From the NCBI GenBank assembly GCA_030141605.1, contig JAQGDQ010000162.1:186001-250000 (forward strand): DNA of 64,000 nucleotides, in the 5' to 3' direction. The notes beneath the pieces were generated by a model. It had not been told where the DNA came from. It saw only the letters and a list, made by a program, of their open reading frames with translations, and did not search any database. Origin of the DNA: Tubiluchus corallicola (Eukaryota > Animalia > Priapulida). The position numbers and the translations under genes were made by a program. Positions 6,119-63,169 of the stretch are shown piece after piece. The first letter of the stretch is position 1, and each line of letters starts with the position of its first letter.

Positions 6119-6362
6119 CTCTGTTGCAAATATTGAGTTATTTTTAATTATCCTGAATGCAAGTAAGCAAAGCAAATCATTGAAGAAACAGTAGATTATC
6201 TGTACCACTCAATGCTTTGACGTAAGCTACCCTGGCTGTACTCGTCACATTCACAAAAATTTTGTGAATCCCTTACGACAGTGTAATTAATAGCAAAGTG
6301 TTTATAAGTCATAATGCTGAAGCGCTAAAATTCGTGGCTATTCTATGTAAAATGTCACATGT

Positions 6363-22800: not shown

Positions 22801-25800
22801 GCCACAAGCTTAATCCTTAATCCAGGCTGGCTTCACCCATAGTAGCAAAGAGCAAACAAATTAGTGTAGAATTAAAACATGACAATTTGCGTTGAATCAT
22901 GAATATGCTCCCAAGTACCTGCCTTTATAACATTTCTGTCATTTTTACCCTGGACAGTCTTTATGCAACAGGATTGCTTATAAGCCCAGTTTTTTCCCTC
23001 GGACATCTTATCTGTGGAATTCTTTATCAAAAAACCTCTTTCCCTACTCTTTTCAACTGCCTGCTTTTAAGAAGAACATGAATAGACTCTTCCTACACTA
23101 GGAACTTAGATACAAGAAATTTATATTTTCTCTTCATAACTTCATCTCCTAGCTCACATAACCATCCGGTACAGTCTGGCAACTTTAGTGAGCAGTCAAT
23201 GTTAAAAAAATGCACAGAATGAAACTTTCAAATCTGATATGATTTAACAGATTTTGGAGATTCGCATTAAGCAGCGATTACTATCAACAACAGTGTTTGG
23301 AACATCCACTTTTCCCCTCATCTTCTTTTAATCTACATCTACTTTTGCATCATCTACACATAGGTATCATCTACTTTCTTCAGCTTCTACATGTATCTAC
23401 ATCTACTTTTATCTACCTAAATAAATAAAAACAACAGAGATTAAGCTATTATTAAACTCTGTCAGCTCCTTCATTTTACAACGTAAAACATTTGGTAAAT
23501 ATTGCAGATGATTATGTCACCGCATATGCAAAGAGATCTATGACTATCTGGCTGCATATGTGTGCAGAATGTGGGGCCACATTTCCCATACGATTAGATA
23601 AAATCATGGCGTTTTTCAGTTGGTAAGGTAGATACGAAAATATTATTATTACAAGCTATTTAATAAACTATTATAAGTTTTTGTCACTGCTGGTTTTCAT
23701 GTATTGCCATTACTTTTCCAAATTTTTGTTCATTCGTTTGTTTGTATTATAAAAAATGTCTAAGATTTCACTCATTCTGTTTGGGTACTGAATAGCAGTC
23801 ATTTTTGTATTTCGTTTGTGTATTGTGTATCGTGTACCATACACTGATTTTAAAGTTACTACCCAGGTATTTCTACACTCTACCTTTTCCGGAACTTTCC
23901 GGTGTGCTTCTTGGAAAAGTTTGCATATTTGCGTGGCTTCATCATTGCTGTGTATGTGAAACAATAACCGTTCTTTCCACAAATCAGCCGACTGCGGAAA
24001 TTTGTCAGAGCCCACCCGGGTGACGGTGTCCAGTTTTTCTACAAGTCCACACTTTTGTAGCAACTCCACCTGAAAAATAACACATATACTTACACATGTA
24101 GTATAATTAATTGCTGTTTATTGGCTAAATTGATAAAACACTCGTACAGTATGCATCGTTATTGACTGATAGAGTTCAATGAATCTAAATGAACTTGACA
24201 AAATTCAGATTAACTTTAAACACACAAGTTTACATACAATTTCTCAAATCAAATTGTTGATCGATGTGCAAAGATTATAGTAATTAAGAGAATTAATAGA
24301 TTTAATATAATTCTACCAAATAATAGTAAAGTCTACTTAACACTGATCACTGAGGCAGGAATGGGACCTAGCTAATTTCGAAGATATAATCCTTTTGATT
24401 CTCTATTTTTACATGAAAAAGTGTATAAGAATGTGGAAAAAACAGATATTGATTAAGTACGACTTGTAACTCTTTAATGTCAATGTCACTGGAACTTTTA
24501 CTAATAATATATCACTCTAATGAAACTTGAAAGTTTGAAGGAAAAGTCAAATTTTCTGGGAAGTCATACTTATTTTCATATGTGTGAAAAACGTTAGGAT
24601 TTAGCTATAATAGCATGATAAGTGCTACGTGTAATTGGCAAAATCACTAAACGTGGCGAACATTTCCATTTTTAACATTCATTCTTCTGCGAATGACGTC
24701 GTTTATCAATTGAAGAAAAGCGGCACACCTTCAAATTCTGTCAAAAGTAGAGAGAGAGATTAGAAAAAGAGGTGGCTAACTTTGTGATATTTTTGCATGA
24801 ATGTTAGGCAAGCTGCATGTACATTAGATAAGGTATGAGTTAGTTTAAGCATGGTGCGCTTACGGAAAGCCATGATGAGCCAAGAAAAGTCTCGAAGTTC
24901 ACTAATTACATCATAATTTTCAAGCGAATGGTGGCTACCATCACGTCTGAAAATTTTTATACAGTGACAGAGTATGAATTAACTTTATGCTTTATTAGAC
25001 AATCTTTTGCAAATTAGTGTGTTATATTTTTCTAAGTATAAGTGTTAAACAAAATGAACCCAACATGTTAAGTGATTGTCCGTTCGTTTATCTCAACATG
25101 TTAAGTGACTGTCCATTCCTTTATCACAACATGTTAAGTGATTGTCCGTTCCTTTATCTCAACATGTTAAGTGACTGTCCATTCCTTTATCACAACATGT
25201 TAAGTGATTGTCCGTTCCTTTATCTCAACATGTTAAGTGACTGTCCATTCCTTTATCGCAACATGTTAAGTGATTGTCCGTTCCTTTATCCCAACATGTT
25301 AAGTGATTGTCCGTTCGTTTATCTCAACATGTTAAGTGATTGTCCGTTCCTTTATCCCAACATGTTAAGTGATTGTCCGTTCGTTTATCTCAACATGTTA
25401 AGTGATTGTCCGTTCCTTTATCCCAACATGTTAAGTGATTGTCCGTTCGTTTATCTCAACATGTTAAGTGACTGTCCGTTCCTTTATCCCAACATGTTAA
25501 GTGATTGTCCGTTCGTTTATCTCAACATGTTAAGTGACTGTCCATTCCTTTATCCCAACATGTTAAGTGATTGTCCGTTCCTTTATCTCAACATGTTAAG
25601 TGACTGTCCATTCCTTTATCGCAACATGTTAAGTGATTGTCCGTTCCTTTATCTCAACATGTTAAGTGACTGTCCATTCCTTTATCGCAACATGTTAAGT
25701 GATTGTCCGTTCCTTTATCCCAACATGTTACGTGATTGTCCGTTCGTTTATCTCAACATGTTAAGTGATTGTCCGTTCCTTTATCCCAACATGTTAAGTG

Positions 25801-28800
25801 ATTGTCCGTTCGTTTATCTCAACATGTTAAGTGATTGTCCGTTCCTTTATCCCAAAATGTTAAGTGATTGTCCGTTCGTTTATCTCAACATGTTAAGTGA
25901 CTGTCCGTTCCTTTATCGCAACATGTTAAGTGACTGTCCATTCCTTTATCGCAACATGTTAAGTGATTGTCCGTTCCTTTATCCCAACATGTTAAGTGAT
26001 TGTCCGTTCGTTTATCTCAACATGTTAAGTGATTGTCCGTTCTTTATCCCAACATGTTAAGTGATTGTCCGTTCCTTTATCTCAACATATTAAGTGACTG
26101 TCCATTCCTTTATCGCAACATGTTAAGTGATTGTCCGTTCCTTTATCGCAACATGTTAAGTGATTGTCCGTTCCTTTATCCCAACATGTTAAGTGATTGT
26201 CCGTTCCTTTATCCCAACATGTTAAGTGATTGTCCGTTCCTTTATCTCAACATGTTAAGTGATTGTCCGCTCCTTTATCCCAACATGTTAAGTGATTGTC
26301 CGTTCCTTTATCCCAACATGTTAAGTGATTGTCCGTTCCTTTATCTCAACACGTTAAGTGACTGTCCGTTCCATTATCGCAACATGTAAAGTGATTGTCC
26401 GTTCCTTTATCCCAACATGTAAAGTGATTGTCCGTTCCTTTATCCCAACATGTTAAGTGATTGTCCGTTCCTTTATCCCAACATGTAAAGTGATTGTCCG
26501 TTCCTTTATCGCAACATGTTAAGTGATTGTCCGTTCCTTTATCCCAACATGTTAAGTGACTGTCCATTCCTTTATCGCAACATGTTAAGTGATTGTCCGT
26601 TCCTTTATCCCAACATGTTAAGTGACTGTCCGTTCGTTTATCTCAACATGTTAAGTGACTGTCCGTTCCTTTATCCCAACATGTTAAGTGATTGTCCGTT
26701 CGTTTATCTCAACATGTTAAGTGATTGTCCGTTCCTTTATCCCAACATGTTAAGTGATTGTCCGTTCCTTTATCCCAACATGTTAAGTGATTGTCCGTTC
26801 CTTTATCTCAACACGTTAAGTGACTGTCCGTTCCATTATCGCAACATGTAAAGTGATTGTCCGTTCCTTTATCCCAACATGTAAAGTGATTGTCCGTTCC
26901 TTTATCCCAACATGTTAAGTGATTGTCCGTTCCTTTATCCCAACATGTAAAGTGATTGTCCGTTCCTTTATCCCAACACGTTAAGTGATTGTCCGTTCCT
27001 TTATCCCAACACGTTAAGTGATTGTCCGTTCCTTTATCCCAACATGTTAAGTGACTGTCCGTTCCTTTATCCCAACATGTTAAGTGATTGTCCGTTCCTT
27101 TATCTCAACACGTTAAGTGATTGTCCGTTCCTTTATCCCAACACGTTAAGTGATTGTCCGTTCCTTTATCCCAACATGTAAAGTGATTGTCCGTTCCTTT
27201 ATCCCAACATGTTAAGTGATTGTCCGTTCCTTTATCCCAACACGTAAAGTGATTGTCCGTTCCTTTATCGCAACATGTTAAGTGATTGTCCGTTCCTTTA
27301 TCCCAACATGTTAAGTGATTGTCCGTTCCTTTATCGCAACATGTTAAGTGATTGTCCGTTCCTTTATCCCAACATGTTAAGTGATTGTCCGTTCCTTTAT
27401 CTCAACATGTTAAGTGATTGTCCGTTCCTTTATCCCAACATGTTAAGTGATTGTCCGTTCCTTTATCCCAACATGTTAAGTGATTGTCCGTTCCTTTATC
27501 TCAACATGTTAAGTGATTGTCCGTTCCTTTATCGCAACATGTTAAGTGATTGTCCGTTCCTTTATCCCAACATGTAAAGTGATTGTCCGTTCCTTTATCG
27601 CAACATGTTAATGATGTCCGTTCCTTATCCAACATGTTAAGTGATTGTCCGTTCCTTTATCCCAACATGTAAAGTGATTGTCCGTTCCTTTATCGCAACA
27701 TGTTAAATGATTGTCCGTTCCTTTATCGCAACATGTTAAGTGATTGTCCGTTCCTTTATCCCAACATGTAAAGTGATTGTCCGTTCCTTTATCGCAACAT
27801 GTTAAATGATTGTCCGTTCCTTTATCGCAACACGTTAAGTGATTGTCCGTTCCTTTATCCCAACATGTTAAGTGACTGTCCATTCCTTTATCGCAACATG
27901 TTAAGTGATTGTCCGTTCCTTTATCCCAACATATTAAGGGAATGTCCACCAATTTATCCTCACCCATTTTAAATACTGTTCTTCACTGAGTTTGTCTGCC
28001 CCTGACGCTCGCTCCAGCACTTCTAATAAACGATACAACCTCTGTTCAGATAACTTATCAGAACCCTTCAATTCTAATCGTTCTTCGATGGCTTTAATGT
28101 AAAATGACCACATTTTGGCAGTGTTGAGCTGTGAGATGGCATCCTCGTATAATTTAAAATATTTAGTTTCCAGCTTGTGCACTCGCGCATCTGTTAAAAG
28201 TACAAAAATCAGTTAACTAGTATCATAAGAATGTGTAGCAAAAAACCAATTTTTTTTACGTTAATAGAGAAAAGCTAGCAAAATGAAGTCTGAAGTTTTT
28301 ATTTCAAAAGAACATGAGTACAAATGTTTACAAAGAGCAAAATGTTTACAAAAAGTAGTAAACAAGCGAAAACCCGGGAAGCTTTTTTGGGAAATTCTCG
28401 TGATTTTATTAAATGCTTTATTTACAACGGCCTATGGTTCAAATACAGGCTCTATCCTGTTTTTTAGTTTTTTAGTCTGATGATTATTATTTTACTAAAT
28501 TTTCTGTGCTTTTATTATTTTTCATTTTTTGTCATATTCAATGTACTTTTAATCAATCAATGTGCCGTTGTCTTAAATATCTTATGAATTAATTTTTTTA
28601 GTAACTCCGATGATCTTTTATTTGTAAAATGCATTAAAAATATTCAATAAATTATTAAAATTATTATTGATTATTTTGTTTTATTTAAAAATCTAGTAAA
28701 TGCAGTCAAGCACAGTAGTTTCAACATTTTTCACCCTTTGAAGCCAATAAAATCAAAAATTCACTTAGCTAAGTCTTATGAATCCAAGAATTTATGCAAA

Positions 28801-31800: not shown

Positions 31801-34800
31801 GGGGCGGGTATTTGAAGTATAATTAATATATGTTTATTTACAGCTTGACCAGGCATACTTAGATCATTAATAAAATTTTGGCCAGCTCGTCCATAAATTG
31901 ACGAGATTCGATCTTGAATGTGACATAAATCGGAAAAAAATTAGTACGAATTATTAATAATTCTGAATAAAAAATGAAAATTTCAAAAAGAAACGATAAA
32001 TTACAGTTTCTGTCTCTCTCTGTCTCTCTCTCTGTCTCTCTGTGTCTCTCTCTGTCTCTCTCTCTGTCTCTGTCTCTCTGTGTCTCTGTCTGTCTCTCTC
32101 TCTGTCTCTCTGTGTCTCTCTCTGTCTCTCTCTCTGTCTCTGTCTCTCTGTGTCTCTCTCTGTCTCTCTGTGTCTCTCTGTCTCTGTCTCGGTCTCTCTT
32201 TGTCTCTCTCTGTCTCTCTGTGTCCTTCTCTCTCTCTGTGTGTGTCTCTCTGTGTCTGTCTCTGTCTCTCTGTGTCTCTCTCTGTGTCACTCTCTGTCTC
32301 TGTCTCTGTCTGTCTCTCTGTCTTTCTGTGTCCCTCTCTGTGTCTCTCTCTGTCTCTCTGTGTGTGTCTCTCTGTGTCTCTCTCTGTCTCTCTCTGTGTC
32401 TCTGTGCCTCTCTGTGTCTCTCTCCGTCGCTTTCTGTCTCTTTGTGTCTCTGTCTGTCTCTCTGTGTCTCTCTCTGTCTCTCTGTGTTTCTCTCTCTGTC
32501 TCTGTCTCTCTCTGTCCCTCTTTTTTAACCATACCCTGCAAATAGAGGGTCCCTGTATGTATTTTATGTAAATATCTGTATATGCGTTCAATTTTAAATT
32601 TTAAATAAAGAATTATAATAATAATAATAATGTCCCTCTGTGTCTCTCTCTGTCTCTTTTTATGTCTCTGTCTGTCTCTCTGTGTCTCTCTGTCTCTGTG
32701 TGTCTCTCTCTGTCTCTCCATCTGCCTCTCTGTGTCTCTCTTTGTCTCTCTGTGTCTCTCTCTGTCTCTCTCTCTCTCTGTCTCTCTCTGTCTCTCTGTG
32801 TCTCTCTCTGTCTCTCTGTGTCTCCCTCTGTCTCTCTGTGTCTCTCTCTGTCTCTGTGTGTCTTTCTCTGTCTCTATGTGTCTCTCTGTGTCTCTCTCTG
32901 TCTCTCTGTGTCTCTCTCCGTCTCTCTGTGCCTCTCTCTGTCTCTTTCTGTCTCTTTGTGTCTCTGTCTGTCTCTCTCTCTCTCTGTTTCTGTCTCTCTC
33001 TGTGTCTCTGTCTCTGTCTGTCTCTGTCTCTCTCTGTGTGTCTCTCTGTTTCTGTGTGTCTCTCTTTCTGTCTCTCTGTGTCTCCATCTGCCTCTCTGTG
33101 TGTCTCTCTCTCTCTGTGTCTCTCTCTGTCTCTGTGTGTCTCTCTCTCTATCTCTATGTGTCTCTCTCTGTCTCTCTGTGACTCTCTCTGTCTCTCTGTG
33201 ACTCTCTCTCTCTGTCTCTCTGTGTCTCTCTCTGTCTCTTTTGATAAGGAGGTTACCATAGCAACACATAGTAGCAGCTTACTGTATATATTATCAATTA
33301 TTAGCTTATTATTATTTACTATAGTGCGACTTTTCATTGAATATTGGCGAATAAAAAATAGTCGTGGACGTCAAGAATTTGTTGTTGCCTTTTTGCTATT
33401 TTGAAAATTTGCGATTATAAGCGTCAGCGCCCTGATTCTCGTTAGAGTTTAGTTGAATATGGTAGTCGGTGTATATGCGTATATCTTTAAGAGACGGTGG
33501 AAACCTGGCGGTTAAATACAATATGAGCGAATGGCTTGAAACATACGTTACACAGAGTCCGAGGCAGGGTCGTACTGGCCTTTGCTGCGTTTCTTAACCA
33601 GTTTTTTTGTTAACGCCCGTTGTAAGTAAGCAGAAGTCTGGTTGTCGAAGTTGCCACACCAAGGTATTAGTAACTAACTAACTATTAACTTGAATTGATT
33701 TGAGGAAAAATATCAGGGACTGACAACTATTCGCCTGTTGAATACAAGACCACACAAAGCTGTGCGCGTTTTAAAAATTGGCTCGCAACATCTTATATTC
33801 GATGCTCACGGCGGTTTCAACACAATTTCACAAATAGTGCCTTGTCTCGCCTTGCCCGCCTTACTTTAGAATCTTGTTTAGCAAAGCGATACTAAACCTT
33901 TTTGACTGAAGTCTATTTTTCAGTCAAGACAGTGGGGCCCTCCCGAGGCCCCCGTATTGATCCACGGGCCATAGGTATATAGCCCGAGCACTTGTACACG
34001 AAACTGTTATTATGTACATGAAATTATTCCGTGTTTTATACAGATTATAAAAATCACTATGTTGTAATCGTCACAGGGGCCCTTCGAAGGGAATGCGGCC
34101 CCTGATGAGGGGCCTGGTTGCTAGGAGTGCCCAGGTTGTACACGAAACTGTTATTATGTACATGAAATTATTCCGTGTTTTATACAGATTATAAAAATCA
34201 CTATGTTGTAATCGTCACAGGGGCCCTTCGAAGGGAATGCGGCCCCTGATGAGGGGCCTGGTTGCTAGGAGTGCCCAGACATGTAAAGCCAGTCCATTAT
34301 TACTATAAACATTGACGTTGCTGCACTTTGTATCGATTCTAATGGCAACACCGTCATCCAAAGCGAATAGCTAAATATAGGTCAAGGTTGTGAAAATGGC
34401 AAAAAAGAGCAACTTTGGCTAAAAATTCTGGACTCTTGGGAGATCGCTGGCCAAAATTTTATTTCATGCATTTGTAGGACTAGTCAAGCTGCAAATAAAA
34501 ATATATTGATTAGTCCCCCAATACCCGCCCCAGTGGAGTTATGGGGATTTCAAAATGGCGTCTAAATTCAGCAGCAGCAGACACGTATCTTTTGCAATCT
34601 GATGACACCAACTGAAAAGGAGGTTCAATTTGGCAACGATAATGGTACGGTAGGGTAAGACCCCTACTATATATATCACCAATTAACTAGTGCTGGATCG
34701 CTCATTTACTGTCTGTAATAACGTGAGAAATAATGGGCAATTTTTTACGCCAAAATGGCCAAAATTCGAAAAAAATCAAAATGGCGGCTTTTCTCAGAAA

Positions 34801-45250: not shown

Positions 45251-45623
45251 ACTGCTGCTGTCAAATTTTGCTAAAAATGAGTTATTTATATGGAGACTTT
45301 TAACTCTACAGAAGTTTCGAAAACGTGACTGCCCGCAAACGGAAGTCTTTCAACTGCTGTCTGCAACCAAAAACTAATCAAAGATTTCCCACATGTAAAC
45401 ATGTGGACCGTCACTTGCTCACGCGAGCTTACTAACATCGTCAGTATTATAGTGTTGGACAGTGTTAGGTCACTTTCTCGTAAGGTTTTCCTTTATGAAA
45501 AATTTTTTTGCCAGTAAAATAAATTTAACGTTGTTTGCCGTGGTTAGTTACTTTATACTATTTTATTTAATTCGCATTGTCTGGCAGTTTTGGTTTGGTA
45601 GTGGAGGTTTTGAATCTGAAGCA
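45251..45623. promoter_or_regulatory. Probable bidirectional promoter and 5' UTRs shared by UTP6 and the epimerase gene
   Basis: Divergent ATGs only 373 bp apart; ETS-like acggaagt at ~45339 and local CpG enrichment. Function is inferred. Confidence 0.65.
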
Positions 45624-48600
45624 ATGTCACAAGAACGTATATTGACTCTAAATGATGATACGTCGGCAACAGTTAATTTGTTTGGTGAGAAACATATTCA
45701 TATAATTTCATATTAGAATTTATAAACAAACAACTTCATATTAGAATTTTTAAATTATAATTGTAAGCATTTGAATTACTTAACAAGAATGTAATACTTT
45801 AAATATGTTTGATCAGAATTAAAGCTAGCCAGTAAAATTATGCAATAGGTACTAGGTACACGTGTGTATTAAAATTGTCTGTTGTTTATAGGTGCAACAA
45901 TTACGTCATGGATATGTGGTAGAAAAGAACTATTATTTGTGAGGTAATATTAAGTTGTTTTGTAGACTGTGCTTCACTGCTTAGCACTGTTTATCTATGA
46001 TTAAATGTACATTTTTTAAATTTCAACACCTTCAGCTTATTGGAATGTAATGTAATTCCTCGCTTAACGATGCTAATACCAGAAAAACGCGACTTCAAAA
46101 ATCATTGTTAAGTGAAGTCAAGACTTCCATAACAGTAATGTAAAAAAAATGAGATGTGTTCCAGAGACAAAATCAGTGCTGCTTAAATCATGGAATTATT
46201 CATATTTTCATATTTCTACTACCTAGTTTCTTTCTGTTTGCATGAAACTGCCCATTTTTCTTACCAATGCATGGCTAGTGGTTTTTTTTATTAACATTGA
46301 AGCCTTACGCATTTAGCAGTTAAACACTGCGTAGTAAAATCCAAGCCCTGGGTTTGCACTATTTTACGTTACTAGTGCATTTTTAGAATGGAATGGTGCA
46401 ATATATATTGTTTTAATGCCTCGTTTAGTGCAAAGTAGGAAAAAATCGTTGTTAAAATGAAATGTGCATTGTTAAGCGACATCGTAAAGTTGTCAACTGT
46501 TCGGTGTCATTAAAGCGAAACATCATTAAATGGGAAGTCGTTAAGAGAGGACTTACTGTAGCTGAATTGCTGGTTCAGGCCTGGATTTTGACCTTTGGGG
46601 CCCGAGACACATGGATATTGAACTACATGGCAAATAAGGAAACAAACTAAAATTAATGGATAGACAGCCCTTGCTGGGAAAAATATAGTTTGATTTCCAT
46701 GGAAGACTATAATTGAGAATAACATTGATTACATATTTCTGATGAATTCATTTGTAACTTCATTAGTTATTTTAATAACAAAACTAATCCATAGAATACT
46801 GTTTTGTGCAAGGGAAAGCTGGGGCCCACTTCTATGTTTACCCCGTCTTTATGTGATTCTGAACGTGTCCTTTCTAGAAATATATTTGAGCAGAAAGAGT
46901 TAATTGAGCTTGTAAGCAGAGAAGGTTACCTACTATGATTACATTATTCTGAGAGTCTAATTAATATTTTTACATGTTTTCCTGTAATAGTTGTTCTGGC
47001 TTGTTTTTCTATAAACGTATTTAATTATTATTTTTTACATATAATATGGCCTTTGGCTAACAAAGCTGTTTTTAGTTTGTGTTTAGTGACTGGGATTAAA
47101 AAACTGCGTGATAAACTTTGTGTGTCTGTTTTATATCTTTTGTGAAGCATAAACGTTCGTGATTAGTCTGTTATGCTAGCATGTGCGTTTTACTATATTT
47201 TTTGCAATTGTTATAACAGTATTATTGTGTGGTTTTGTAGTGTGTTGAACTATATCTAAAAACTTTTTTAAGCTGCCTAACTTTATTTGTTTTCCTTTTT
47301 GTTTTTAATTGCACTTCCTGTTTCAGCAAGAAATCTAAATTTGATGTTCTGCCTTTATACCATGGTGGAATTCCTATAGTCTTCCGTAAGTGTTTTGTAT
47401 TACTGCATGAAAACTGATACGACATTTTTTGTTCATGTTTTAGCTCCCAGTCTAAGTTTGATAACTCTAAAGCCATCCGAGGAGGAATTCCTATTGTATT
47501 CCGTGAGTCATTTATGTGTAACTGTTGTTTTAGAGGTCTTACTGTATAGAGGTGTTATCTCTTTGACTTTACAATGTTTTAGTACATGTACATGTCACCT
47601 TCTATAATTTGCTCTGTGATGTATTTTTTCTAATGAAGGGCAAGCACTACGACTGAGAAACATCGTATGTGTTAATTTTGGTGGTATCTGGATATGTATA
47701 TATATATAAGATTCGAGCCTACAGCTCTGATGACGGCACCATCTTTGGTGGTCTTGATATCGTGGGGGGGGGGCAAAAACCTCAAAAAATGGCCCTTTTT
47801 TGCCTGTTTGTTGCAAAATTTATATCTCTTATTTCTAGAGATTGGGAATAGGCCGTGGGTAGACCAATGGTGGGTATAGCAGGCTTATTTAGAATTCACG
47901 GCATAGTTACGACGTCCTGTAACGGGCGTTTTCTCGGCCCCAACTCCAGATTTTTTGGAAATTTTGACCGAATAGCCTATATAAAAATGTTCTATCAGCG
48001 CCTGATGGAACTCTTGGAAAGAGATATGTAGCTCTTTAGAAAGAGAAGGAACAGAGCTACATGGTGAAGTAGGTTGCATTTTAGAATGCCTGCTCCAAGA
48101 GGAGCTGTGACGAGTTGATTGGAGGTTCCATTTTAGGTGATTCTCGCGTAGAAAACTGCTGACATTTTGCATTGTTCTGACGTCATTCCATTGTACTCTG
48201 CTTATAACTTTGTAACTTTAATTCAGTAAAAGCTGCTGCTAGCTTTGCATTAGGTAAATAAACGAACATTATGTAGGATATTCGTGCATTATTTATTAGA
48301 AGTGGATTTATACGTAAAATATTAGTTGTGAAAATATAACATATTCTGACACTTACTGCATCAATGTTCAAATTCATGAGTAATTAGCTAATTCTAGTGT
48401 AGCTACATGGCAGTGTCACAAAATGTTGATTAACAACAAAAGCTAGTTGCAGCCTGGCGGGGGGCTTCTTGCTCATTGATAATGCTATGGAGTGAAAAAG
48501 ATAAATAAGTGCTGAAATAATGTTCTACGGTCTTTGCTAAATTCACACATTCGCACAACCTTCCAACTTTGTCCACTGATTCTTTGGATCTTCTGCCACA

Positions 48601-51600
48601 TTAGAGAGGCTCTAATTACACCATCCTTCACGGTACCACAGGTTGCCTGTTTTTCATAGAGCTATCAGGTATGAACTGGAAATCACTGCACCTTAGAACT
48701 TCTTGGTACGAGTTTGAAACTTGCCAGCTTGTCTAGCCGGAGCTAACTGTACGCAACTAGTAGATCCTGAACATGACACTAATATACCTATTTTCCAAAT
48801 GCATTAATGTTACTGTAGTGTTATTGAGCTTAAAGCCAATGTGGTAAACAGCTGGAAAACTATTAAATTTTTAATTAATTTTATTTAATTTTAATTAGTT
48901 GTAATTTCTTGCAAAAACTGTTTCTCCAAGCTAGCAAGACGGTGGATGTGTTTAGTTTAATTTTATTTAGTTAACTGTTTGATCTGTTTAGTTCGTTTGT
49001 ATTTTAAAAGTGCAGTTTGTGAATCTTGGTGCACAAAATTAGTAATATGTATACAAATAAAGGGGAAGAAAAGGCAATTTTAAAGAATGTCCACAAAGAC
49101 TTTTCATTCAAAGTCATATTACTTGCCTGTTTAAACGACTTATGAAGCAAAAAAAAGAACAAAAATGAAATTTATAATGTTTGAACGAAATGATAAAATC
49201 TCGCTGATTCACCTTCCCAGTATGCATCACTGACTGACCAAAAATATATTTTTAATCTTTCTGGCAAGATAAAGTAATTTAAACTTTTGTTAGTTAGCGA
49301 AGTGTGTGGCACAAATGCTCTGCTCTGATTATTCTTTTCTGCCTTTTTGCATGGTTATCTGAACTTGTGACTTATCCTCAAAACAGCTCTGCTTAACAGT
49401 CATTGCAGGAGTTTAAATTTGCAAATTTTGTACGGCATTAGTGCATTACTGCTAATACATATTCTGTCATCTTGTAAGTGATATGAAACTTCACAAATTT
49501 TTAGGCTTTAATTATGAAGAATGTTTTCTTGTGCTTTAATATATTACATATCAATGGAAACGTTTTCCTTTTTAGTAAAAGTGCAATTTTCTATGAGAGT
49601 TTGCACAGGAACTGATGTTTACATTGGCTGCTTGATTTTATCAGTCTTTCAACATCTGGCTCGATAATGCGTTGATAATCCATCATTTTTCAGCCCACTT
49701 TGGTGCTTGGTTGTCTGGACCTCAGCATGGCTTTGCTAGAAGTTGCATGTGGCGTGTAGAAGAGGAACCGCACAAGACTGAAGACGGGTCTGTAGTCGCC
49801 ATACTTTCACTGTCGGACAATGAAAAGACCAGAGAAATGTGGGACCATGGGTGAGTTGCAGATTTTGGCATTTCCTCCTACTTCTAAATCATTTGTGGGA
49901 ATACCTATTTTCCATTAGCAGAGCAGTCTGTGTGTTCATACGTTTCGTTCCATATTTCTGGATAAAAAGGTCCAGTATAAATGCAAGAAAGCCACACTGT
50001 ATAGAAAGCCTGAGAAAATTTTTGGGTCCTGTACCCCTTGTTTACACCTACACCTTCACTGGTTCCTGAACCATTCCGCTCAGCTAAATTAACCTCTATA
50101 CTGCAAAGGCAACTACTTTTCAAACTTAGAAATTTATTCTATAAGCTATTAGAGGTCTGTCAATGGGGAATCTCAGTCGACACTGTATCAAGACGTACAT
50201 TATCACTTCAATAAAGGCGCAAAAGCAATGCTAAATTTGAAAGCCTGAAAAAGTTTTGTACCTCTACTAGGACTTCACTCACCTCAGCCTAAACTTAAGT
50301 TTATTTTGCTGTTCTATAGCGGCACTCTCCATAAAACTTATGCTCTAGCACGCTTTACAATGATTATAATGCTAACTTCATATACCACTAAAATAATAAA
50401 TTATATAATAAAATTATAAAATGTATAAAGTGGGCAGAAAATACATCAAAAAAATAAAACATTACTGATTAACCAGCAAGTTTGCTGGGAAAATCTGGTG
50501 CTTCATGTTTTACTTTTTCAGATTCAAATTGAGCTATAAAATAACACTGGACAAGTGCAAACTTTCCACGGAACTTTCCGTTACAAATACAGGTAAGCAA
50601 AGTGTTAATACTTAGCAAACACTGAGCCAGGCTGTTTTCAGTTGGCACACTCTTACTCTAATCATTTAGCTATAGAACGTTCAAAAATTATACCTTTGTC
50701 AAGCAAATTGCTATTCGCTGCATGCTAAATGAAAACCTTATTCGTCTCAAAAGTTGTTTTTTCTAAAAGTGTGGCTTATCTAATAACATGGGGTTTGCTT
50801 GCTTTTTTACTTTCAACTTAATTAGTTCAATGATCCTACAAATGATGCTTAACTGGTAAACCATACAAACTGAGATACCACAATATGAAATTACTATGAA
50901 TTATTTGAATTATTTATTCTTAATAAAATGTTCAACACAACCATTTGAAACACAATAACAAAATATTTATAATTTAGTATAGTATAGTATTTTGACAGCA
51001 AGTCACAACAAACTAATTATATAGATTAGAATGAGGCCTCATGTTCGTGGGGGAGCACTTGGGCAACTGCCCAGCATGCCCAGGCATTAAGATGACCCTG
51101 CCTGTGTACACCGTTTTTACATGATCCTTTCTCAAGGATTTAAAGAGTCGAAGAAGTTGATTGTCCCATCTGGTGACTCGGTCTGCCACCTGCATGTTAG
51201 GACTTCATAGTGACATTTCTTCCACCAACCAACTGTGCTGTTTCCTTCATTGATCAGTTATTGTTAATTTTAGGTTCATCATCGTTTGCCTTTACCTGCC
51301 TGCTGCACAACTATTTCAACATTCCAGACATGAGCAAGTGTCAGATAATTGGTCTGAAAGGCACTTCCTACAAGGACAAGGTACAGATGTCATTTTCTTA
51401 TGGCTATTTCACCCCAACTAGCAACAGCTTTTCAAAACATATGTTGAATGCCTGATTGTTAAATTTTTGTTTAATTTTTATCTTAATTTACCTTGTGGTG
51501 CCATCTGTTGGCGTCTATATCAAGTGGTAACTAGGTGACTCTGACAGGTAGTGTAGTTAGCATCTGCATTTTGTTCAAGTCAGATGGCCATTTCACGATT

Positions 51601-54600
51601 TGAGAATATTTTATGTTCAAAGGTATCATGTATGAAATATGTTATCGTGGCCCATTAAAAGAAAACTGGACCCAATCTTAAATTATAGTAATTTTTATTA
51701 GTAGTTTTTTTTATTATTTTTCAAGAATGATTTATGCGAAAGAATTATTATCAAACAAATGCAATTTCCCATTCGCGCAGCTAGTTTTTCGCTGTTACAT
51801 GCATTTATTTGCTTACATGGGCACTAGCGCCTGCATCTCGGAAACGCGTTGCACAAAAAACAGTTGTTGTACCTTTTAGTTCATAGGTGTTTAGTTGTGG
51901 CATAGTGCACACATTCACGAGCTCATGTTTGAGCACAGTGGTAAATTTAAAATTTATCATGTGTTTGTATATCGCACATAATGTTGTATTGAGGCACTGT
52001 ACTTCAATTTTTGCTTTCGTAAATGTGGAGTTTGCCTATAAAATGTTTGTGCTATTGAACACTGGCAAACCATTTAACCTTCCCTTCTAAATTATAAAAA
52101 TTGATACCATTGTTTGGTTTATGCTTGCATAGTTTTTAGGGCTTATTTGTTTCTTTAAATGCCCAGCGATTTATCCATTGTTTTTGCCAACAAAATGTCT
52201 TGTATCTTTGATTTAGCTAAAATTCATGGAGTGAATTCAAGGAAAGATGGCCCAATTTAAGCTCATTAGATCAACTGCTTTATCGTGCATGCAAGTACTG
52301 GTAATGTCGCAACAATACGGTAGAGGATTTATATATCTCATTCTTTTAATTTGTAATAATCACATCAGGCATGTGGTGTAAAAATTACTGTCACTTTACA
52401 TTGCAAATAGCTAATGTGATGTAAAATCACAGTATTTCTTAAGAAAAGTAGGGGGCAGCTGAACAGAGACTTGGAAAGAATATAGTTTTGTTCTTTTGAA
52501 TTCCAGGTCAGGAACTTTGCAGAATTTGTTGAGGAAGGAGATTTTGTGACGATCAATGCCAACATTGATAAGTAAGTTTTTACGATGCATATTGCATGTC
52601 AGTTTGAAAATCTCTTTGTGGTGTTGTTTTTTTTATAACATTTAGATCAAAAGCCATTCTGCTTCTCGTGTTGCGGCCATAGTTATAGTTTACTGTTTAC
52701 TAGTGTTTAGTTTTCACGCACCATTTATGTGTGATTACATTTTATTTTATGCAGTGCTCACTTCCTAGGGAACATTGTACCCAGAATTTCTTCTTTTTAT
52801 GGCAAATTCAGTTTTTAAGAGATGCTCTTATCTCATTCTTGCAACCCCTCTATGTAAATGCAATGCTTTTTTATTAACAGTTGCTAGGTTGTACCTAGAT
52901 ACATCTTTTGTTATGCTGTAATATCTTATGTTAGCACCATAAATTATCTCTTATCTTTATCTTAATTTTGTAATGCGGTACTTAATTTTGTAATTTTGTA
53001 ACTTGTACATGTCAGATATAAATTTAAAACATCTTGCCAAAAATGGCCTCACCAGGTTAGGCAATCCGGTCAGATGAAAAAGCATTTAATTAGCAAGATC
53101 TACGAAGGCTCGTGGTCATAGTAGTTGAATAGTAATGTCTGTAGCTTGATGTTTTTTATATCTATGTCGTGCTCACAAACTTAGGTGCCATAAAGATTCT
53201 GCTCCAGGCTGGTCAAAATCATAGGTGCTGTTGCTTCAAGCTATATGTGCTATGCTTTGACCAATGCAACTTTTTTGTTTTGATTTGTTTTTAACTCTTT
53301 TTAGCATTTATGCCAACACCCAGAATGAGCTGTTGCTGAAAGGAGCTAGTAATGGTTGGAGTATCAAAATAACGAAATCCAATCTTCCTGACACTGGTAT
53401 GCACTGTAAACCAGCAATTTCCTTTCAGGAAATTATTTACACTTATTAATAATTGTGGTAGTTTTTCGCTGTATTGCCGCTTGTATATCAGTGACAGCAT
53501 TGCTGTAGCAAACCCCTGTGAATGGAATGAAACAGTTTCCTTTTTTCTTCTGTAATTTTCACACAAATTGGTGGTTATACTTTAAGGAAGGCAGGATGAT
53601 TTTTCATATGCTACCCCCATTTTCAAGTCTGATATAATGAATACATTTTCACACTATAGATACAGCAAAAGCGTGTCTGATATTTAATAATAGATTGAAA
53701 ACTTAATTTGATGACATCGAGCAAGTGCAACTATTGATGACATCACAAACTAACATAATCTTAAACAGCAAAAATATTCCGCGAGCGTGTTGTGCATGTT
53801 CGCAAAAATGAAAATTGAAGTATAGTGCTACTTTAAGATATTCAGTGTGTTGTACTAAAACTAAACAAGTTTTAAGTTAAAATTTCCAATTTACCACTGT
53901 GCTCGCTCATCAGCTATCAAACATTGTGTAGTTCGTCACAAACTAACACATCTGAACTGAGTGGTACAGCACCAGTTTTTTGTGTAATGCACTTCCGAAA
54001 TGCAGGTGCTAGAGCCTGTCAAACTAGCGAATGGCGAAATGCATGTAACAGCGTAGAACTAGTGGCGCGAACATGAAATTATGTTTGTGTGGTAATAATT
54101 TTTTCATGCAAGTCATTTTTGAAAAAACAGTGTGTTTCCTTTTAATATTTTAAAGAGTGGATTGTTTTGACGTATAGTTGAAGATTGGGTCTGGTTTTGC
54201 TTTAAAATATTTTGTATGAGATATGAACAGAAATAATATTATTTGTAACTAACTTCTAAACTGTAGTTCCTATTAAAAAATGTTTGGTATGTAGTGGTTT
54301 AATTTGTGACCGATGCATTAGTTTCCTGTTTAATTATTGTTGAGTATAAACTGTTGTCTTTATGTTTTGTGCTTTTAGCAGTGACGGCTTGTGCATAGGC
54401 ACTGTGGAACTTCAGCACCGCCTATTTTCACTCAATATAATCTTTACCAATTAGTATAAAAGTCTTTTTTTCTCTTTTTTATGTTTGTATGGAATCAGAG
54501 CACGTGATGATGGTGCTTTTTGCTTAACAGCCCAGCACAGCAGTGTGTTTGCCTGTTGTGTGCATGATTGCATACACACATGTCTGACATAAGATGCTGT

Positions 54601-55117
54601 ACACTGCACTGCTAGTGTCTGCTGTTAGGTTGAAAAAGTACTGTTGCTGACACGTTTGTTGTCAGTTGCCACGTGCTTAAAAAGTGTATACCAGCATATT
54701 CCTGAACTGCAACAATTCGGACTATTTATAAGCAAAAAATTTTTTATTTAGGAACTTTATCAAGTTTATGTATACATTTTTGTATGTTTGTTGTTTCAAA
54801 TTACAATTACAAATCAGAACATTAAAATTACATATGTTTAAAGGCTAAAAATTTTCTGAAACAGCACAACCACTAATTTTAACTACAGGCAAACACTGTT
54901 TGTGAGGCACACTTCTTGTACATTACAGGAATTAAACTTTCTTTTTGCAGTTGTGTGGAATCCGTGGGCAGATAACGCCAAGAAAATGTCTGACTTTGGC
55001 GATGAGGAATACCTAAATATGGTGTGTATCGAACCGGGCAGCGTGAGTAAGCCTACAACCCTGGCAGTGGGGAAGGTGTTCACTGCATCTCAGACGCTAC
55101 TGCCCTTAATGCAATAG
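45624..55117 (+). CDS. Glucose-6-phosphate 1-epimerase (D-hexose-6-phosphate mutarotase, YMR099C/YeaD-type aldose 1-epimerase family)
   Basis: Exons 45624-45684, 45892-45943, [47327-47385 or 47444-47502], 49694-49850, 50522-50592, 51274-51380, 52507-52571, 53305-53396, 54951-55117 join in frame. Family motifs GATITSW, KAIRGGIPIVFP.FG, PQHGFAR, LHNYF, VVWNPW, DFGDEEY..MVCIEPG are all present. Confidence 0.93.
46050..46558. mobile_element. Tigger-like MITE
   Basis: gtaattcctcgcttaacga ... tcgttaagagaggacttactg|TA imperfect inverted termini. Confidence 0.6.
47327..47385 (+). CDS. Epimerase exon 3a (variant, SKKSKFDVLPLYHGGIPIVFP)
   Basis: Polypyrimidine tract + tttcag acceptor, C|gtaagt donor, 59 nt, phases fit exons 2 and 4. 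Confidence 0.8.
47444..47502 (+). CDS. Epimerase exon 3b (canonical, SSQSKFDNSKAIRGGIPIVFP)
   Basis: ttttag acceptor, C|gtgagt donor, 59 nt, same phases as 3a, canonical family motif. Confidence 0.9.
51655..52090. mobile_element. Internally deleted copy of the Kolobok-like non-autonomous family
   Basis: Starts ttaaaagaaaactggacccaatc and shares ctgttacatgcattt..gcctgcat.tcgga blocks with the copy at 59931. Confidence 0.55.
53582..54205. mobile_element. TTAA-flanked non-autonomous DNA element (Kolobok-like), opposite orientation to the copy at 59931
   Basis: ttaaggaaggcag ... ttgggtctggttttgctttaa is the reverse complement of the ends of 59931-60858. Confidence 0.65.
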
Positions 55118-56460: not shown

Positions 56461-57150
56461 TCACACTAAACTAACAGTTTTATTTTTGCCTACTACGAGA
56501 TCCATTGTTTTCAGTTTCTTTTCTATTGAGTTTTTTATTTCATCTGTTTCTTCTTTGTTTCTTGTAATCCATGCCACATCATCAGCATGCTGCATATAGT
56601 ATGCTGATAATGTACTATGCTCTACTATACTAGGCATAGTAGTAGACATACTTTGCAGAGAGCCATAACTGAATTCTTGTCTTACTTCATTTGGTATTCA
56701 GAATCGAGAATTGTGTAGTTTACTACGTCAGTAATTGTCAGTGATTCCGTCATCTTCATCATCTTTAGAGTCACATGTCGTTTGAAATGACCTTCCGATC
56801 ACCTTACTCCGTGCTGCCCTGTCTCCTGCAACCTTCCATGTCTCTGTATTTTTGATATCTAATGGTGTGTTGATAAGATGAAATTGGTATAAGTCAGCAG
56901 CTGTCCTCCTTGTGGTTTCTTTTCTTTCTGCAGTACTTCTTTGAAAGCTAACTTTAATGGACTGTCGCCTGGTTGTCGTATAACATGTCCTATCCATCTC
57001 AATCTTTTCCTTCTGATTTTGATTGTTCATTTCTCTGCTTTGACTTTATTGTACAGATCCTGGTTTGATATTTTCTTAGGCCATTTTATTCCCAGAATGT
57101 TCTTGTAGTTTCTTCTTTGAAATTCATTAATTTCTGATTCGTGTTGTTCT
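56461..57150 (-). mobile_element. Two older fragments of the RTE-like LINE family
   Basis: MQHADDVAWITRNKEETDEIKNSIEKKLK (56461-56720) and a 3' segment (56730-57150) parallel to the adjacent copy. Confidence 0.75.
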
Positions 57151-57302
57151 GAGTTTTTTTAACTCACTTTCAAAATTTTTGTTGGAAAGTTGAGCAATGT
57201 GTATTCAGAAGTTATAAATTCGAATTTGTTTGTGGTAAAGAATACTCACCCCTAGTCAGCACCACTTCAGTATTTTGGTACATCTGGCATCTGCCACAAA
57301 AA

Positions 57303-58890
57303 CTCTTCTTCTTCTTCTTCAATGAATCACTCGTCCAGGGACATGATTCTGCTCTCTCTACGCCAGGACTCCCTACATGCTGCAATGCCCCAAGGGGATT
57401 TATTTCTAAGGATCAATGCTGAAGTGTCCAAATCTTTCTGTGCAAAATCTAAGTATGTTAACATTTGTCCTCCTGCAAATTTTTTAGCTGGTTCTCTGGC
57501 TTGTTGAAGAGCTATCTTCACTGGAACATCATCAGTTAGTCTAAGCATATGCCCAATCCATCTTAAACGGCGTCTTTTTATTTTTCTTGTCCAAGGTTCT
57601 TCTTTTATTTTTTCATACAGATCTTTGTTTGAAATTTTCTTTGGCCATCTAATACCCAAAACCTTTCTGTAATTTCACCTTTGAAATACATCGATTTCAG
57701 CCTTTATGATTTGCTTTTAATGTCCAGAGCTCAGAGTTATACAGAAACACAGTTTCAACTAAGGCTGAGAAAACTCTAATTTTTGTTTCCAAAGATATCT
57801 TTCTATTTTCAAAAATTTTTGTAAGTTTCGAGTAAGCTGATAATGCCATTATCTTCCGTCTTAGTATGTCGTCCTCTGTTGCCAGCAGACTACCGAAATA
57901 CTTGCATCTTTGCCATGATTCATCACCATGGCGTGTTATATGAAACTCTTCAGTTTTATTTTTGTTTACAACGAGATCCATTCTGTTCAGTTTCTCCTCT
58001 ATTGAGTTTTTTTATTTCACCTACTTCTTCTTTGTTTCTTGTAATGCATGCCACATCATCAGCATACTGCATTGATATCGTAGTTGACTTACTTTGTAGA
58101 GAGCTGTAACTGTGTTCTTGTCTTACTTCATTCGGTATTAATTTAGGAACAAGAATTGTGTAGTTGTGATCATCTAGGTCTTTCAATGGTATAACTTTGT
58201 CCTCAGTGAGAGCTATGGCAAGATATAAAGTAAAAAGTACAGGGCTTAAACAGTCACCCTGATGTACTCCTTTGTTTGTAGAAAATGGCTGACTCAATTT
58301 CCCTTCACACCTGACTTGAATTAATAGATTTTCTAACATTATACTTATGATATATATTTCATCAGGTTCAAGGATTTCCTCCAGACAGCAAAGCAGAGTT
58401 TTTCTCCGAACGCAATCAAAGGCCTTTGACATATCGATCATGAGGATATATATTGAGTAATCAGCAGAAGAGATGGCTTTTTCAGCTAGTAATATACAGG
58501 CTTGTACTAATTCAGTAGTATTCCGCCCTGGTTGATATGCTGCTTGGCTTGTTGGAATGTAAGTGTGTAACCTGTCATAGATCCTAGTCAACATACAGAT
58601 AGCCAAAATCTTCCTTATTTGTGTAAGCAACATCAATGGTCCAAGATTTTCTATAGGACCTCCTTTCTTGCCTGGCTTGGGTAAAGGGATAAGTATTCCT
58701 TTTTGAATATCATGTGGAAATGTGTCTGTTTTGCAAATATTGTTTAGAATTTCAGCAATTTCTGCATATAAATTTTCTGATCCATGCTTGACTAACTCAG
58801 CATTTAATTCATCAGCGCCGGGGTTTTGTTATTTTTCAATGATTTTGCCGCATGCTTTACTTCTTCTTTAGTAAATGGAACTTTCATTGG
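57303..58890 (-). mobile_element. 5'-truncated, frameshifted RTE-clade LINE
   Basis: RT motifs IDMSKAFDCV, GVHQGDCLSP.LF, MQYADD, KYFGS, FLYNSELW, and RTE-type tail IRWPKKISNKDLY..IKRRRLRWIGHMLR, followed by a (GAA)n 3' tail at 57303-57320. Confidence 0.9.
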
Positions 58891-60295: not shown

Positions 60296-60897
60296 CTCTT
60301 TAAAATATTGAAGGGAAACATACTATTTTTTTTTCAAAAATGACTTATATGAAATGATTGTTACCACACAAACACAATTTTATATTTGTACCACTAGTTG
60401 TTTGCTGTTACATGCATTTCCCCATTTGCTAGTTAGACGGGCAGTAGCACCTGCATTTCGGAGAAATGCATTGCACTAAAAATGGTGTTGTACCTCTCAG
60501 TTCAGATGTGTTAATTTCCGACGATGTACATACGTTCGACGGCTCATGCGTGAGCACAGCGAGTGGCAAATTTGAAATTTAAATTTTTATCTTAAAATTT
60601 GCCTAGTTTGTGTCTTTTTTGTGCCTAGTTTCAGTACAAAACACTGAATATTTTACAGTAGTACTGCACTTCAATTTGCACTTTAACAAACATGCGCAAC
60701 AGCCTTGTGGAATGTTTTTGATGTTGAAAATTATGTTAGTTTGTGATATCATCAATAGTTGGGCTCGCCTGTTGTTAATTAAAATTGTTTTAAAGTGTAT
60801 AATTTTATTTGACTTGGAAATTGGGTAGCATATAAAAAATCTTTCTGCCTTCCTTTAACTTGTTTATTTGTACCACACAGGTTGCGTATGTTGAAGG

Positions 60898-61166
60898 ATG
60901 GGATTCCGGAAGAAATTCCTGCCAAAAACGATCAGCGACTGGATTCCTTTTGCAGGCTTTCTAGTTTTCACATTTGCCGTGTATGTGTTTGAGGTGGCTT
61001 ATGTTCTACCGGCAATTTACCCCACTTATAGCACTTTTACTTATTTTCACTGCATTGTGGGGACATTCATTTACGTCAATGTGGTTTTGAATTTCGCCAT
61101 GCTGGTTTTGATTGATTCGTCTGCATCTGGTAAATTTTTGCCAACTGTCTTAAAGCCCGAGTGGAG
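60898..61166 (+). CDS. First coding exon of a probable DHHC palmitoyltransferase (ZDHHC24/22-like); remainder beyond the window
   Basis: Acceptor cacag at 60880, donor AG|gtaggt at 61166. Two hydrophobic helices (FEVAYVLP..H..VG.FI..NVV.N..ML..IDSS) ending LPTVLKPEWR resemble the segment just before the Cys-rich DHHC domain in invertebrate ZDHHC24-like proteins. The DHHC motif itself is not in the window. Confidence 0.65.
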
Positions 61167-63169
61167 GTAGGTGCCAGTCTTAGCATACGATTTCTTTTGC
61201 ATTCATAGTTGTAGTTTATCACTTTTCCTCTTACCCCTTGTGACCCTTGTACTCGATTGTTGAGATTCAGCAGCAGTGAAGAAATTAAGAGCAGTTATGT
61301 GCAGTACAAAAAGCAACGATTGGTGCATTTCAACTTACGGCACTGTTATGTTAACAACAAGCATTCAGTTAAATACATGCTGAGGGCCTGAACACACAAG
61401 CTGTGAGCCAAGAAAACTGGGGTTTGCCGCACAAAATTTTTTTGCTATTAGGCCGACAATAGAAATACTCCTGTTTCCGTCTAACAGATTTAATTTAAAA
61501 TAACACGCAATAATTATTATAACATCATTCTTTCGGGGAACGAGGATGCGGCCATGTTTTTCTACAGCTAACTCTCGGCCAGGGTTGCCATTTTGTATGA
61601 TGGTCATTGTATTGGAAGCTAAAATGTATCGAATTTTCTGCCAAGTCGGTGTATTAACGGCCGAGTAGTGTTGCTGTTTGTACCATAATTATCAGAACAT
61701 GATACAAAAGAGACTATACAATAATTGATAATTATACAATAATTTAGTAAAGCGAAACTAAAAAAACAAAGCGTGAAAAACTTTGCACTGAAAAAATTTA
61801 AAACATTACTGCTTACCCGTAGAAAATAACCAATCTTTGATTGCAGTTGTCAGCTTAGGTAAAGTGCCAAGCACTATTAATGCAGGGATCAGGGGAATCA
61901 AATAATCTATGTTATCCTTTTTGTGCATTGTAAAGCTTTACAGTCTGTTTATTCATATCTTTTTTATTGGCCTGCAATCGGGATTTTAAATGTTCGTAAA
62001 CAATTTCATTTGGATAATTAACTTCTTGGTACAGAACTCATAGAACTGCACAGCAGGAGGGAATGTTTAAATTTTAAATTCTCTAACAATGGATATCCTA
62101 TTACAAGTAATGCCTGCATTTTCATTGTTGGAACCGAGTAGAAATATTAGGCTCGGATAACAAACAATGTGAGTAATTTCTTGGGTACCCGGGTACCCAA
62201 TGCAAACCTTATTCATAGTGATGTTATGCATCATTTTTAATTCTTTCAGCTAGTAGATTTGCGCAATACTGTATACAATATGTGTGTTTATGTTTAACTT
62301 AGTAACCTCTAATTCGGTTTAAGCTAGTGCTTCTAACGGCTTGTTATAATCATTATCTTATAAATTTTTTTATAGAAGAGATTATTGTACAATGCATTTG
62401 AAGTCGTGAAGTGCGATATAGTTTGTTTTATCAATAATAAAGTCATAGTAGTAAAAGTCAAGTGTGGTGACTGTGGCTTACAGTACTAAAAAGCCAAGTG
62501 CGGTGGCTGTCAGGGGCGCCGGATCCACGGTTGCAGCGGCCCCCTTTGCCCTTTCCCAAGGGGGGGTCAACTCCGGAGCAGAACTTTGCCGTTTTGATGG
62601 AGAAATGTGTGGTTATCCCTGATTACCCTAAAGAGTTTATGTGAACTTGTAAACGGTCCAGTATTGATAAACCCACATTACATACACATGCTTGTGCTCA
62701 AAATGTTCCCTTTTCGTAAATGCTGCTCTCCATCTGTAATTTGCTGCCGGTGCCCCTGCTGGCTGTTTTTTTCAGTAAATCATTTAATAATGTAAAAAGG
62801 GCATCAGTATGTAAAAACAGTGGTTCAGTAAAGTATGTGTAACTCACACTAGTATAGCTCGAATTCTTGTTTATTTCAAACAGATTTCATTGGACAGATT
62901 TTTCCCTTTCTTTTTTCCTATTAATAAACATCGTATAACTCGAAATCTGTAATTTGAATTATCACGTAGCTCAAACCAAATTCCCAATACAATTCTTAAG
63001 ACTTTGATTGAATTTGCCTCGCCTATTTCAAACAACCTCTCAAGTGAGAAGTGTGTGTAGTGTGCATAACATCAGGATTTTAGCTGCCAGTTTCAGCAAG
63101 AATGCTAAGATTTCTTGTGTTTCCTTAGCAGAAGGGTGCACACAAGATGGCTTAACATGGTTTAATGTA

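Follow-up and report, generated by a model that had tools for sequence, protein, structure and literature searches.

Exon 3 of a mutarotase gene of the priapulid Tubiluchus corallicola is present as two adjacent copies, here called 3a and 3b, in the 64,000-nucleotide stretch that we analysed (contig JAQGDQ010000162.1, positions 186,001 to 250,000; hereafter the window, to whose first letter all coordinates refer). The pair is real, and it is probably a functional pair of mutually exclusive exons that toggles one arginine of the phosphate-binding clamp of the enzyme. Judging from the sequence, we give a probability of about one half to the reading in which the two exons are intact tandem duplicates, likely to be included one at a time, with 3b giving the canonical form (Arg50) and 3a a likely active form (His50) whose preference would be shifted towards less charged sugars.

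The twin exons and their gene

Exon 3a (47327–47385) and exon 3b (47444–47502) both measure 59 nucleotides (nt), are flanked by AG and GT, are entered in phase 2 and left in phase 1, and carry the donors GTAAGT and GTGAGT. The original prediction, an earlier note on this DNA, had announced two adjacent 59-nt exons with the same phases and good splice sites, and the coordinates, phases and AG/GT borders are all as it claimed. The twins encode the same residue at 11 of their 19 internal codons and are identical at 34 of 59 nt. This likeness does not arise by chance, since the best of about 127,900 other 57-nt stretches from both strands of the window reaches only 7 of 19 residues. No third copy of exon 3 was found in the window, nor did tblastn reveal a second copy of any other exon among the matches listed (best off-exon match at E 0.035).

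Joined to exons 1, 2 and 4–9, either 3a alone or 3b alone gives an open frame of 276 amino acids (aa). Including both exons, or neither, breaks the frame as anticipated, with stops at codons 99 and 53, respectively. Retention of the 58-nt intron between the twins (47386–47443) keeps the frame, but an in-frame TGA is met at 47415–47417. Homologous mutually exclusive exons are recognized by their tandem arrangement, like length and shared phases and by a full protein that is obtained only from single inclusion; 3a and 3b show all of these features, and their mutually exclusive splicing is likely.

Exclusion would be enforced by the 58-nt intron itself, which is the shortest of the nine introns of the gene (the next shortest is 207 nt). 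Its branch-like A (47417), identified by consensus match, is the 32nd base from the 3a donor, a distance below the limit of about 50 nt on simultaneous U1 and U2 binding that is cited for OGDH, tropomyosin and actinin in vertebrates (PMC7969005). In OGDH exons 4a/4b the branch point likewise lies less than about 50 nt from the upstream donor, which is proposed to enforce exclusion, and OGDH has mapped distant branch points (PMC7969005). The intron between 3a and 3b differs in being only 58 nt long in all and in having a branch point placed by consensus match. Messenger RNAs with both exons or neither would be removed by nonsense-mediated decay, since their early stops lie far upstream of the later junctions. 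No clear docking–selector pairing appeared in an RNA fold of 47150–47700, run without a shuffle control. In the acceptor region of 3a (47277–47326), a consensus scan picks out a branch-like CTAAC, with its A at 47280, together with an extended pyrimidine tract; both may serve the splicing of 3a.

The window is intron-rich animal DNA with a GC content of about 35%, and the gene extends over 45624–55117 on the + strand in nine exons. Coding exon 1, with the ATG (45624–45684), is supported by the open spliced frame, by alignment with homologues and by a contig of the sequencing run X1 described below; exon 2 (45892–45943), which ends in phase 2, rests on the spliced frame and on homologue alignment. 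The frame of 3a is accompanied by an X1 contig, and that of 3b by homologue alignment. Downstream, exons 5 (50522–50592), 7 (52507–52571) and 8 (53305–53396) were placed by frame and homologue alignment, as was exon 6 (51274–51380), whereas exon 4 (49694–49850) has an additional Pfam match and exon 9 (54951–55117), which holds the stop codon, matches both Pfam and a yeast structure.

The arginine clamp and the loop replaced in exon 3a

Exon 9 passes the cut-off of Pfam PF01263 (27.1 bits) and matches the structure of yeast YMR099C (PDB entry 2ciq) at E 3.3e-7; exon 4 matches PF01263 at E 0.0023. The 3b peptide matches 2ciq at E 0.051, and the 3a peptide has no PDB sequence match at E 10. With exon 4 as query, HMMER found 89 relatives; a profile search scored 7995 candidates and matched 3951 of them at E 1e-40, the best 120 of these 3951 being listed. 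The closest homologues among the matches listed are about 50–52% identical and include named animal glucose-6-phosphate (G6P) epimerases. Together with PF01263 and 2ciq, this identity of about 50% upholds the proposed membership of the hexose-6-phosphate mutarotase family, in which we take CG9008 to be the fly orthologue. Word-based searches with exon 4 or exon 9 alone returned no relative (eight candidates each), an ESM Atlas search with exon 4 added only one aldose-epimerase-like cluster, and Escherichia coli GalM, YihR and YphB could not be aligned reliably across the motif by profile comparison. In the animal tree, which is a quick tree only, the window protein has a long branch (0.65) and groups with an annelid protein and one further protein at a weak Shimodaira–Hasegawa-like approximate likelihood ratio (SH-aLRT) support of 88.

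By hand count along the alignment, Arg50, Gln68, His69, Arg73, His145 and Glu249 correspond to yeast Arg57, Gln81, His82, Arg86, His159 and Glu264. Arg50 is encoded by exon 3b (codon 47478–47480), Gln68, His69 (49726–49728) and Arg73 (49738–49740) by exon 4, His145 (51306–51308) by exon 6 and Glu249 (55031–55033) by exon 9. We take His69, His145 and Glu249 to be the catalytic residues; all three lie in exons common to both isoforms, in line with the claim that the catalytic residues are in constitutive exons. Arg50 and Arg73 are the only invariant arginines in a 40-sequence alignment (A2), and their counterparts Arg57 and Arg86 are presumably the yeast clamp pair, a naming that also draws on this invariance. 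The sulfate in the yeast active site is gripped by a clamp of two highly conserved arginines (PMC10666784, citing Graille 2006). We found no residue-level account of the yeast site in the literature. The arginine of the RGGIP motif had been named as a phosphate ligand, and its alignment with yeast Arg57 and its invariance fit the described clamp.

The present enzyme shares its fold with yeast YMR099C (PDB entries 2ciq, 2cir and 2cis; PF01263) and bacterial YeaD, as judged from a homologue model with a TM-score of 0.88 to 2ciq, and isoform 3b matches the yeast His82/His159/Glu264 and Arg57/Arg86 positions. The yeast entry is a single Arg form, whereas here a second exon gives His at the Arg57 position and a changed loop. 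Isoform 3b thus has both clamp arginines (Arg50 and Arg73) and would be a canonical hexose-6-phosphate mutarotase. Isoform 3a has His50 in place of the first and should therefore not be filed as a canonical G6P epimerase.

Isoform 3b itself may not be fully canonical, given two features of the shared exons: HNY at 51306–51314, where HTY is usual (Asn in 14 of 274 homologues), and Asp-Asn at 52567–53310, where Asp-Arg is usual (Asn in 5 of 274). Both also occur in divergent amphioxus and unnamed paralogues. Another natural alteration of the same pocket is seen in aphid homologues (P0183, P0162 and relatives), in which the second conserved Arg is replaced by Met or Lys and most also change the Gln.

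In a set of 274 distinct homologues (200–420 aa), 13 have a gap at position 50; the 261 with a residue there comprise 257 with Arg, four with another residue and none with His, which marks 3b as the canonical copy. All 261 homologues with a residue at position 49 have Ile or Val. Exon 3a alters six consecutive loop residues (NSKAIR to VLPLYH; codons 45–50, 47346–47363), including Arg to His (codon 47361–47363), and its flanks are kept. Five of the six new residues are absent from all 146 homologues compared; 3a keeps the residue that is commonest in the family at 9 of 19 positions, and 3b at 13 of 19. The block has no regular secondary structure in the AlphaFold model of homologue P0206 (mean predicted local distance difference test score 90.6; TM-score 0.88 to 2ciq). 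Since His69, His145, Glu249 and Arg73 come from shared exons and the swapped block is a loop, catalysis would survive in 3a. Its clamp is predicted to be weaker, which would move the preference from sugar phosphates to less charged sugars, a plausible shift of substrate. Gating by pH through the His, another suggestion of the original prediction, found no support.

The differences between the twins are clustered, as the original prediction had not noticed: 16 of 18 nt differ within codons 45–50 against 9 of 41 outside (Fisher p 1.8e-6, for a block picked post hoc). An in-register inversion of 47349–47359, the possible core of a micro-inversion, matches 3b at 8 of 11 positions (p 0.030 by shuffling and 0.046 against intron sequence, both post hoc), and the block may have been remodelled by one such event rather than by gradual tuning. 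A compensated frameshift was rejected as its origin (p 0.66–0.73). The four synonymous differences reported between shared residues are all real, and the 11 shared codons offer about 7.7 synonymous sites; over the whole exon, the proportions of synonymous and nonsynonymous differences between 3a and 3b are 0.70 (pS) and 0.36 (pN). These values, from a tiny sample with shared codons chosen afterwards, fit the proposed old duplication with both copies constrained since.

His-type relatives, transcripts and the rest of the window

When bacterial and archaeal genomes were scanned for the YeaD form of the motif with His in it, 110 bacterial loci matched, every one a family member; the scan asked for His alone and so cannot show that His is favoured over other replacements. 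Both His are kept in all 81 distinct His-type proteins of at least 200 aa, the Glu in 77 (four gaps) and the second Arg in 72. They are encoded by separate genes, not splice forms, in Kiritimatiellae, Chthoniobacterales, Chloroploca and others. Like 3a, they combine His at the Arg57 position with the catalytic residues. They look like live enzymes and could simply replace the Arg form; their retained catalytic residues argue against a dead 3a enzyme and do not identify its substrate.

A quick tree with 25 His forms shows a Kiritimatiellae-rich clade, a Chthoniobacterales clade, an Actinomyces-labelled pair and single rows for Chloroploca, Phycisphaeraceae, Methylococcus and Sodalis. All stand apart from the window protein, which groups with animal Arg forms at 99, so that on this tree they are independent of the animal change. 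The same Arg to His change appears to recur at several separate places of this tree, whose deep forks are poorly supported. In phylum samples not chosen for His (225 genomes besides four centres), all 36 loci have Arg. Moreover, a Lys or Arg three residues upstream is present in 27 of 95 His-type but 27 of 33 Arg-type bacteria (non-independent samples), and 3a is likewise without it.

Ten His-type genomes together hold 22 distinct loci, 20 with His and two with Thr; four genomes have three to five matches each and six have one. Glycoside hydrolases are scattered among the genes near His-type loci, which also include a PfkB kinase and a sugar transporter; these occurrences stand without a base rate. 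His-type and two Thr-type YeaD homologues reach three to five matches per genome in Kiritimatiellae-like assemblies, and some of them lie inside very long open frames (up to 1760 aa between stops) and may be fusions. We met no description of these homologues, at which no literature search was aimed. In Sodalis, yeaD adjoins gapA (L203:4524–5240), has Arg to His as its lone change and has a short 238-aa frame; it may be an endosymbiont gene in decay, which means that some His forms could be nonfunctional.

No His form was found among the listed members of 30 clusters (at most 15 from each), and of the 120 metagenome loci that carry the His motif in the 34 of 64 parts scanned, none belongs to the family. 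The only tandem motif repeat seen was in a Lingula anatina protein of MetaClust (P0210), in which the exon 2+3 peptide is repeated identically; this may be a genomic duplication or a model artefact.

Transcripts were sought in X1, a single run found by species label only, whose RNA type is guessed and which shares 0.00 of sampled words. Its contigs were placed on 45300–48700, with exon 4 outside this range; 14 contigs mapped, of which eight were displayed. One contig of 164 nt (depth 15.9) covers 47332–47385 with three differing letters and breaks off precisely at the 3a donor; the other 110 letters of the contig match neither the 58-nt intron nor 3b. The simplest reading is that 3a is spliced to exon 4. 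The bin depths over 3a are this single contig record; it makes a pseudo-exon unlikely and gives no isoform ratio. A second contig covers 45481–45637 with 13 differences, so the source of X1 is a close relative or an individual that has diverged. No X1 contig covers exon 3b, exon 2 or the greater part of exon 1, and no joints are listed; since the contigs show presence only, X1 is silent on the use of 3b. The proposed check for spliced reads using 3a was thus answered in part: one contig leaves 3a at its donor, and a transcript containing 3b was not seen in X1. X1 contigs with loose ends also cover the intron pieces 47698–47761 and 47985–48288; these are probably dispersed repeats, with no second copy found within the window.

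Elsewhere in the window, a 33-bp minisatellite (25059–27947; about 88 copies, 93% match) with long open frames on both strands sits between two UTP6-like exons on the − strand (23713–24117 and 27937–28212). A BTB-BACK (kelch-like) exon lies on the + strand at 12709–13434 and a WDR90-like exon at 4069–4392. There are also two broken reverse transcriptase elements of the type without long terminal repeats, at 6351–8254 (+) and 56728–58828 (−), with RVT_1 matches at 6890–7423 and 57959–58828, a 1.2-kb TC-rich microsatellite (32009–33239) and, at 60895–61170, a hydrophobic open reading frame (ORF) without a Pfam match, perhaps the initial exon of the gene that follows.

Competing readings and the meaning of the probable switch

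Several observations weigh against an exon pair that switches substrate. HGG[IV]P occurs in 0 of 343 proteins, neither a relative with the exon pair nor an animal His form was found, and the nearest homologue among the matches listed is only about 52% identical. In bacteria, no Arg-type copy was found in any of the ten His-type genomes (possibly incomplete), the His forms may simply do the ordinary job, being the only copy found in six of them, and no pathway is common to the 115 ORFs that neighbour 32 His-type loci. On the transcript side, the exon joined to 3a is not among the displayed letters of the X1 contig and its three differing letters are unlisted, so that the His codon is unseen; X1 is itself only guessed to be RNA, without shared sampled words, and differs by about 6–8% from the window. 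As for the mechanism, the steric limit of about 50 nt is known from vertebrates, and introns near 60 nt are spliced in many invertebrates. Finally, the block could have arisen by an accidental micro-inversion (8 of 11, p 0.03–0.05 post hoc) and not by stepwise selection.

If both exons are used and the swap is near neutral, His50 and Arg73 would still bind phosphate and the gene would make two ordinary hexose-6-phosphate mutarotases. We consider this unlikely: the lone His-type copies in six of ten bacterial genomes, the second Arg kept in 72 of 81 proteins and neighbourhoods that point to no special sugar speak for it, but those genomes may be incomplete, the Arg found in 257 of 261 homologues and in all 36 unselected loci shows that His is rarely tolerated, and 3a also alters Ile49 (Ile or Val in 261 of 261) and Lys47. 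Somewhat less likely still is that 3a gives a catalytically poor isoform which turns activity down or has a noncatalytic role such as partner binding. All of the catalytic residues are shared and intact, and are kept in bacterial His forms, and skipping exon 3 would already switch the gene off through an early stop; yet five of the six block residues are found in none of 146 homologues, most animal homologues without this Arg have also lost catalytic residues, and the yeast protein forms a complex with Trz1 and Nuc1 (PMC10666784).

A shade less probable than a poor isoform, in our estimate, is a replacement in progress, in which 3a is the working exon of the lineage and 3b a minor or recently silenced leftover. 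The X1 contig shows 3a in use, its acceptor has the CTAAC site and long pyrimidine tract, and some bacteria appear to manage with His forms alone; in 3b, however, the frame is open, the splice sites fit the consensus and 13 of 19 positions have the commonest family residue, although about half of the synonymous sites have diverged between the copies. That 3a is a decaying pseudo-exon or an assembly artefact is largely refuted. A six-residue block rewritten possibly by one mutation, with no orthologous pair found, would suit such an origin, but a haplotype duplicate is excluded by the synonymous divergence, 3a retains its frame, its two splice sites and the GGIPIVF strand intact, and the X1 contig, whose source is a diverged individual or relative, agrees with 3a at 51 of 54 letters and ends at the donor. 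We retain, as the best reading, the exon pair with a canonical 3b and a likely active 3a whose substrate preference is predicted to be shifted.

Homologous mutually exclusive exons that switch ligand or catalytic residues occur in KHK-A/C and ACOX1. Fly CRMP (His/Gly zinc ligand) and CG42249 do the same and, like 3a/3b, have short duplicated exons with fewer than ten variable residues clustered at a functional site (PMC7954323); neither 'mutarotase' nor 'epimerase' occurs in the main text of that paper. Closest in kind are the coq-2 exons 6a/6e of helminths, annelids and molluscs, likewise homologous and mutually exclusive, one pan-eukaryotic and the other derived, which also swap conserved residues near the substrate of a metabolic enzyme (PMC7434440). 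The coq-2 pair is kept across phyla and its change of substrate was shown, whereas the present pair is from one lineage and is known from sequence. Exons 3a/3b are a fresh case of such a coq-2-like active-site exon switch. That the switch is undescribed holds for this enzyme, on which we found no report in a literature whose subscription journals were sparsely covered, but not for its general kind, given coq-2, fly CRMP and CG42249.

The spontaneous anomerisation of G6P has a half-life of about 6 s and far outpaces that of other hexoses (PMC5902678). Flux could therefore depend more on an isoform adapted to slower sugars than on the canonical isoform. A more far-reaching picture, which we hold only tentatively, is a regulated switch by which one animal gene would supply two mutarotases, one acting on sugar phosphates and the other on sugars that are free or differently charged. 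The His form would then be an undescribed specificity class of YMR099C/YeaD that has arisen repeatedly, with an expansion in polysaccharide-degrading Kiritimatiellae and an animal copy born maybe from a micro-inversion. If the swap is neutral, the pair is only a lineage-specific curiosity. In either case the isoforms differ in just eight residues of one loop and form a natural control pair for the role of the arginine clamp in specificity, in a family whose role in animals has barely been studied; the function of 3a would also inform about a hundred His-type bacterial relatives.
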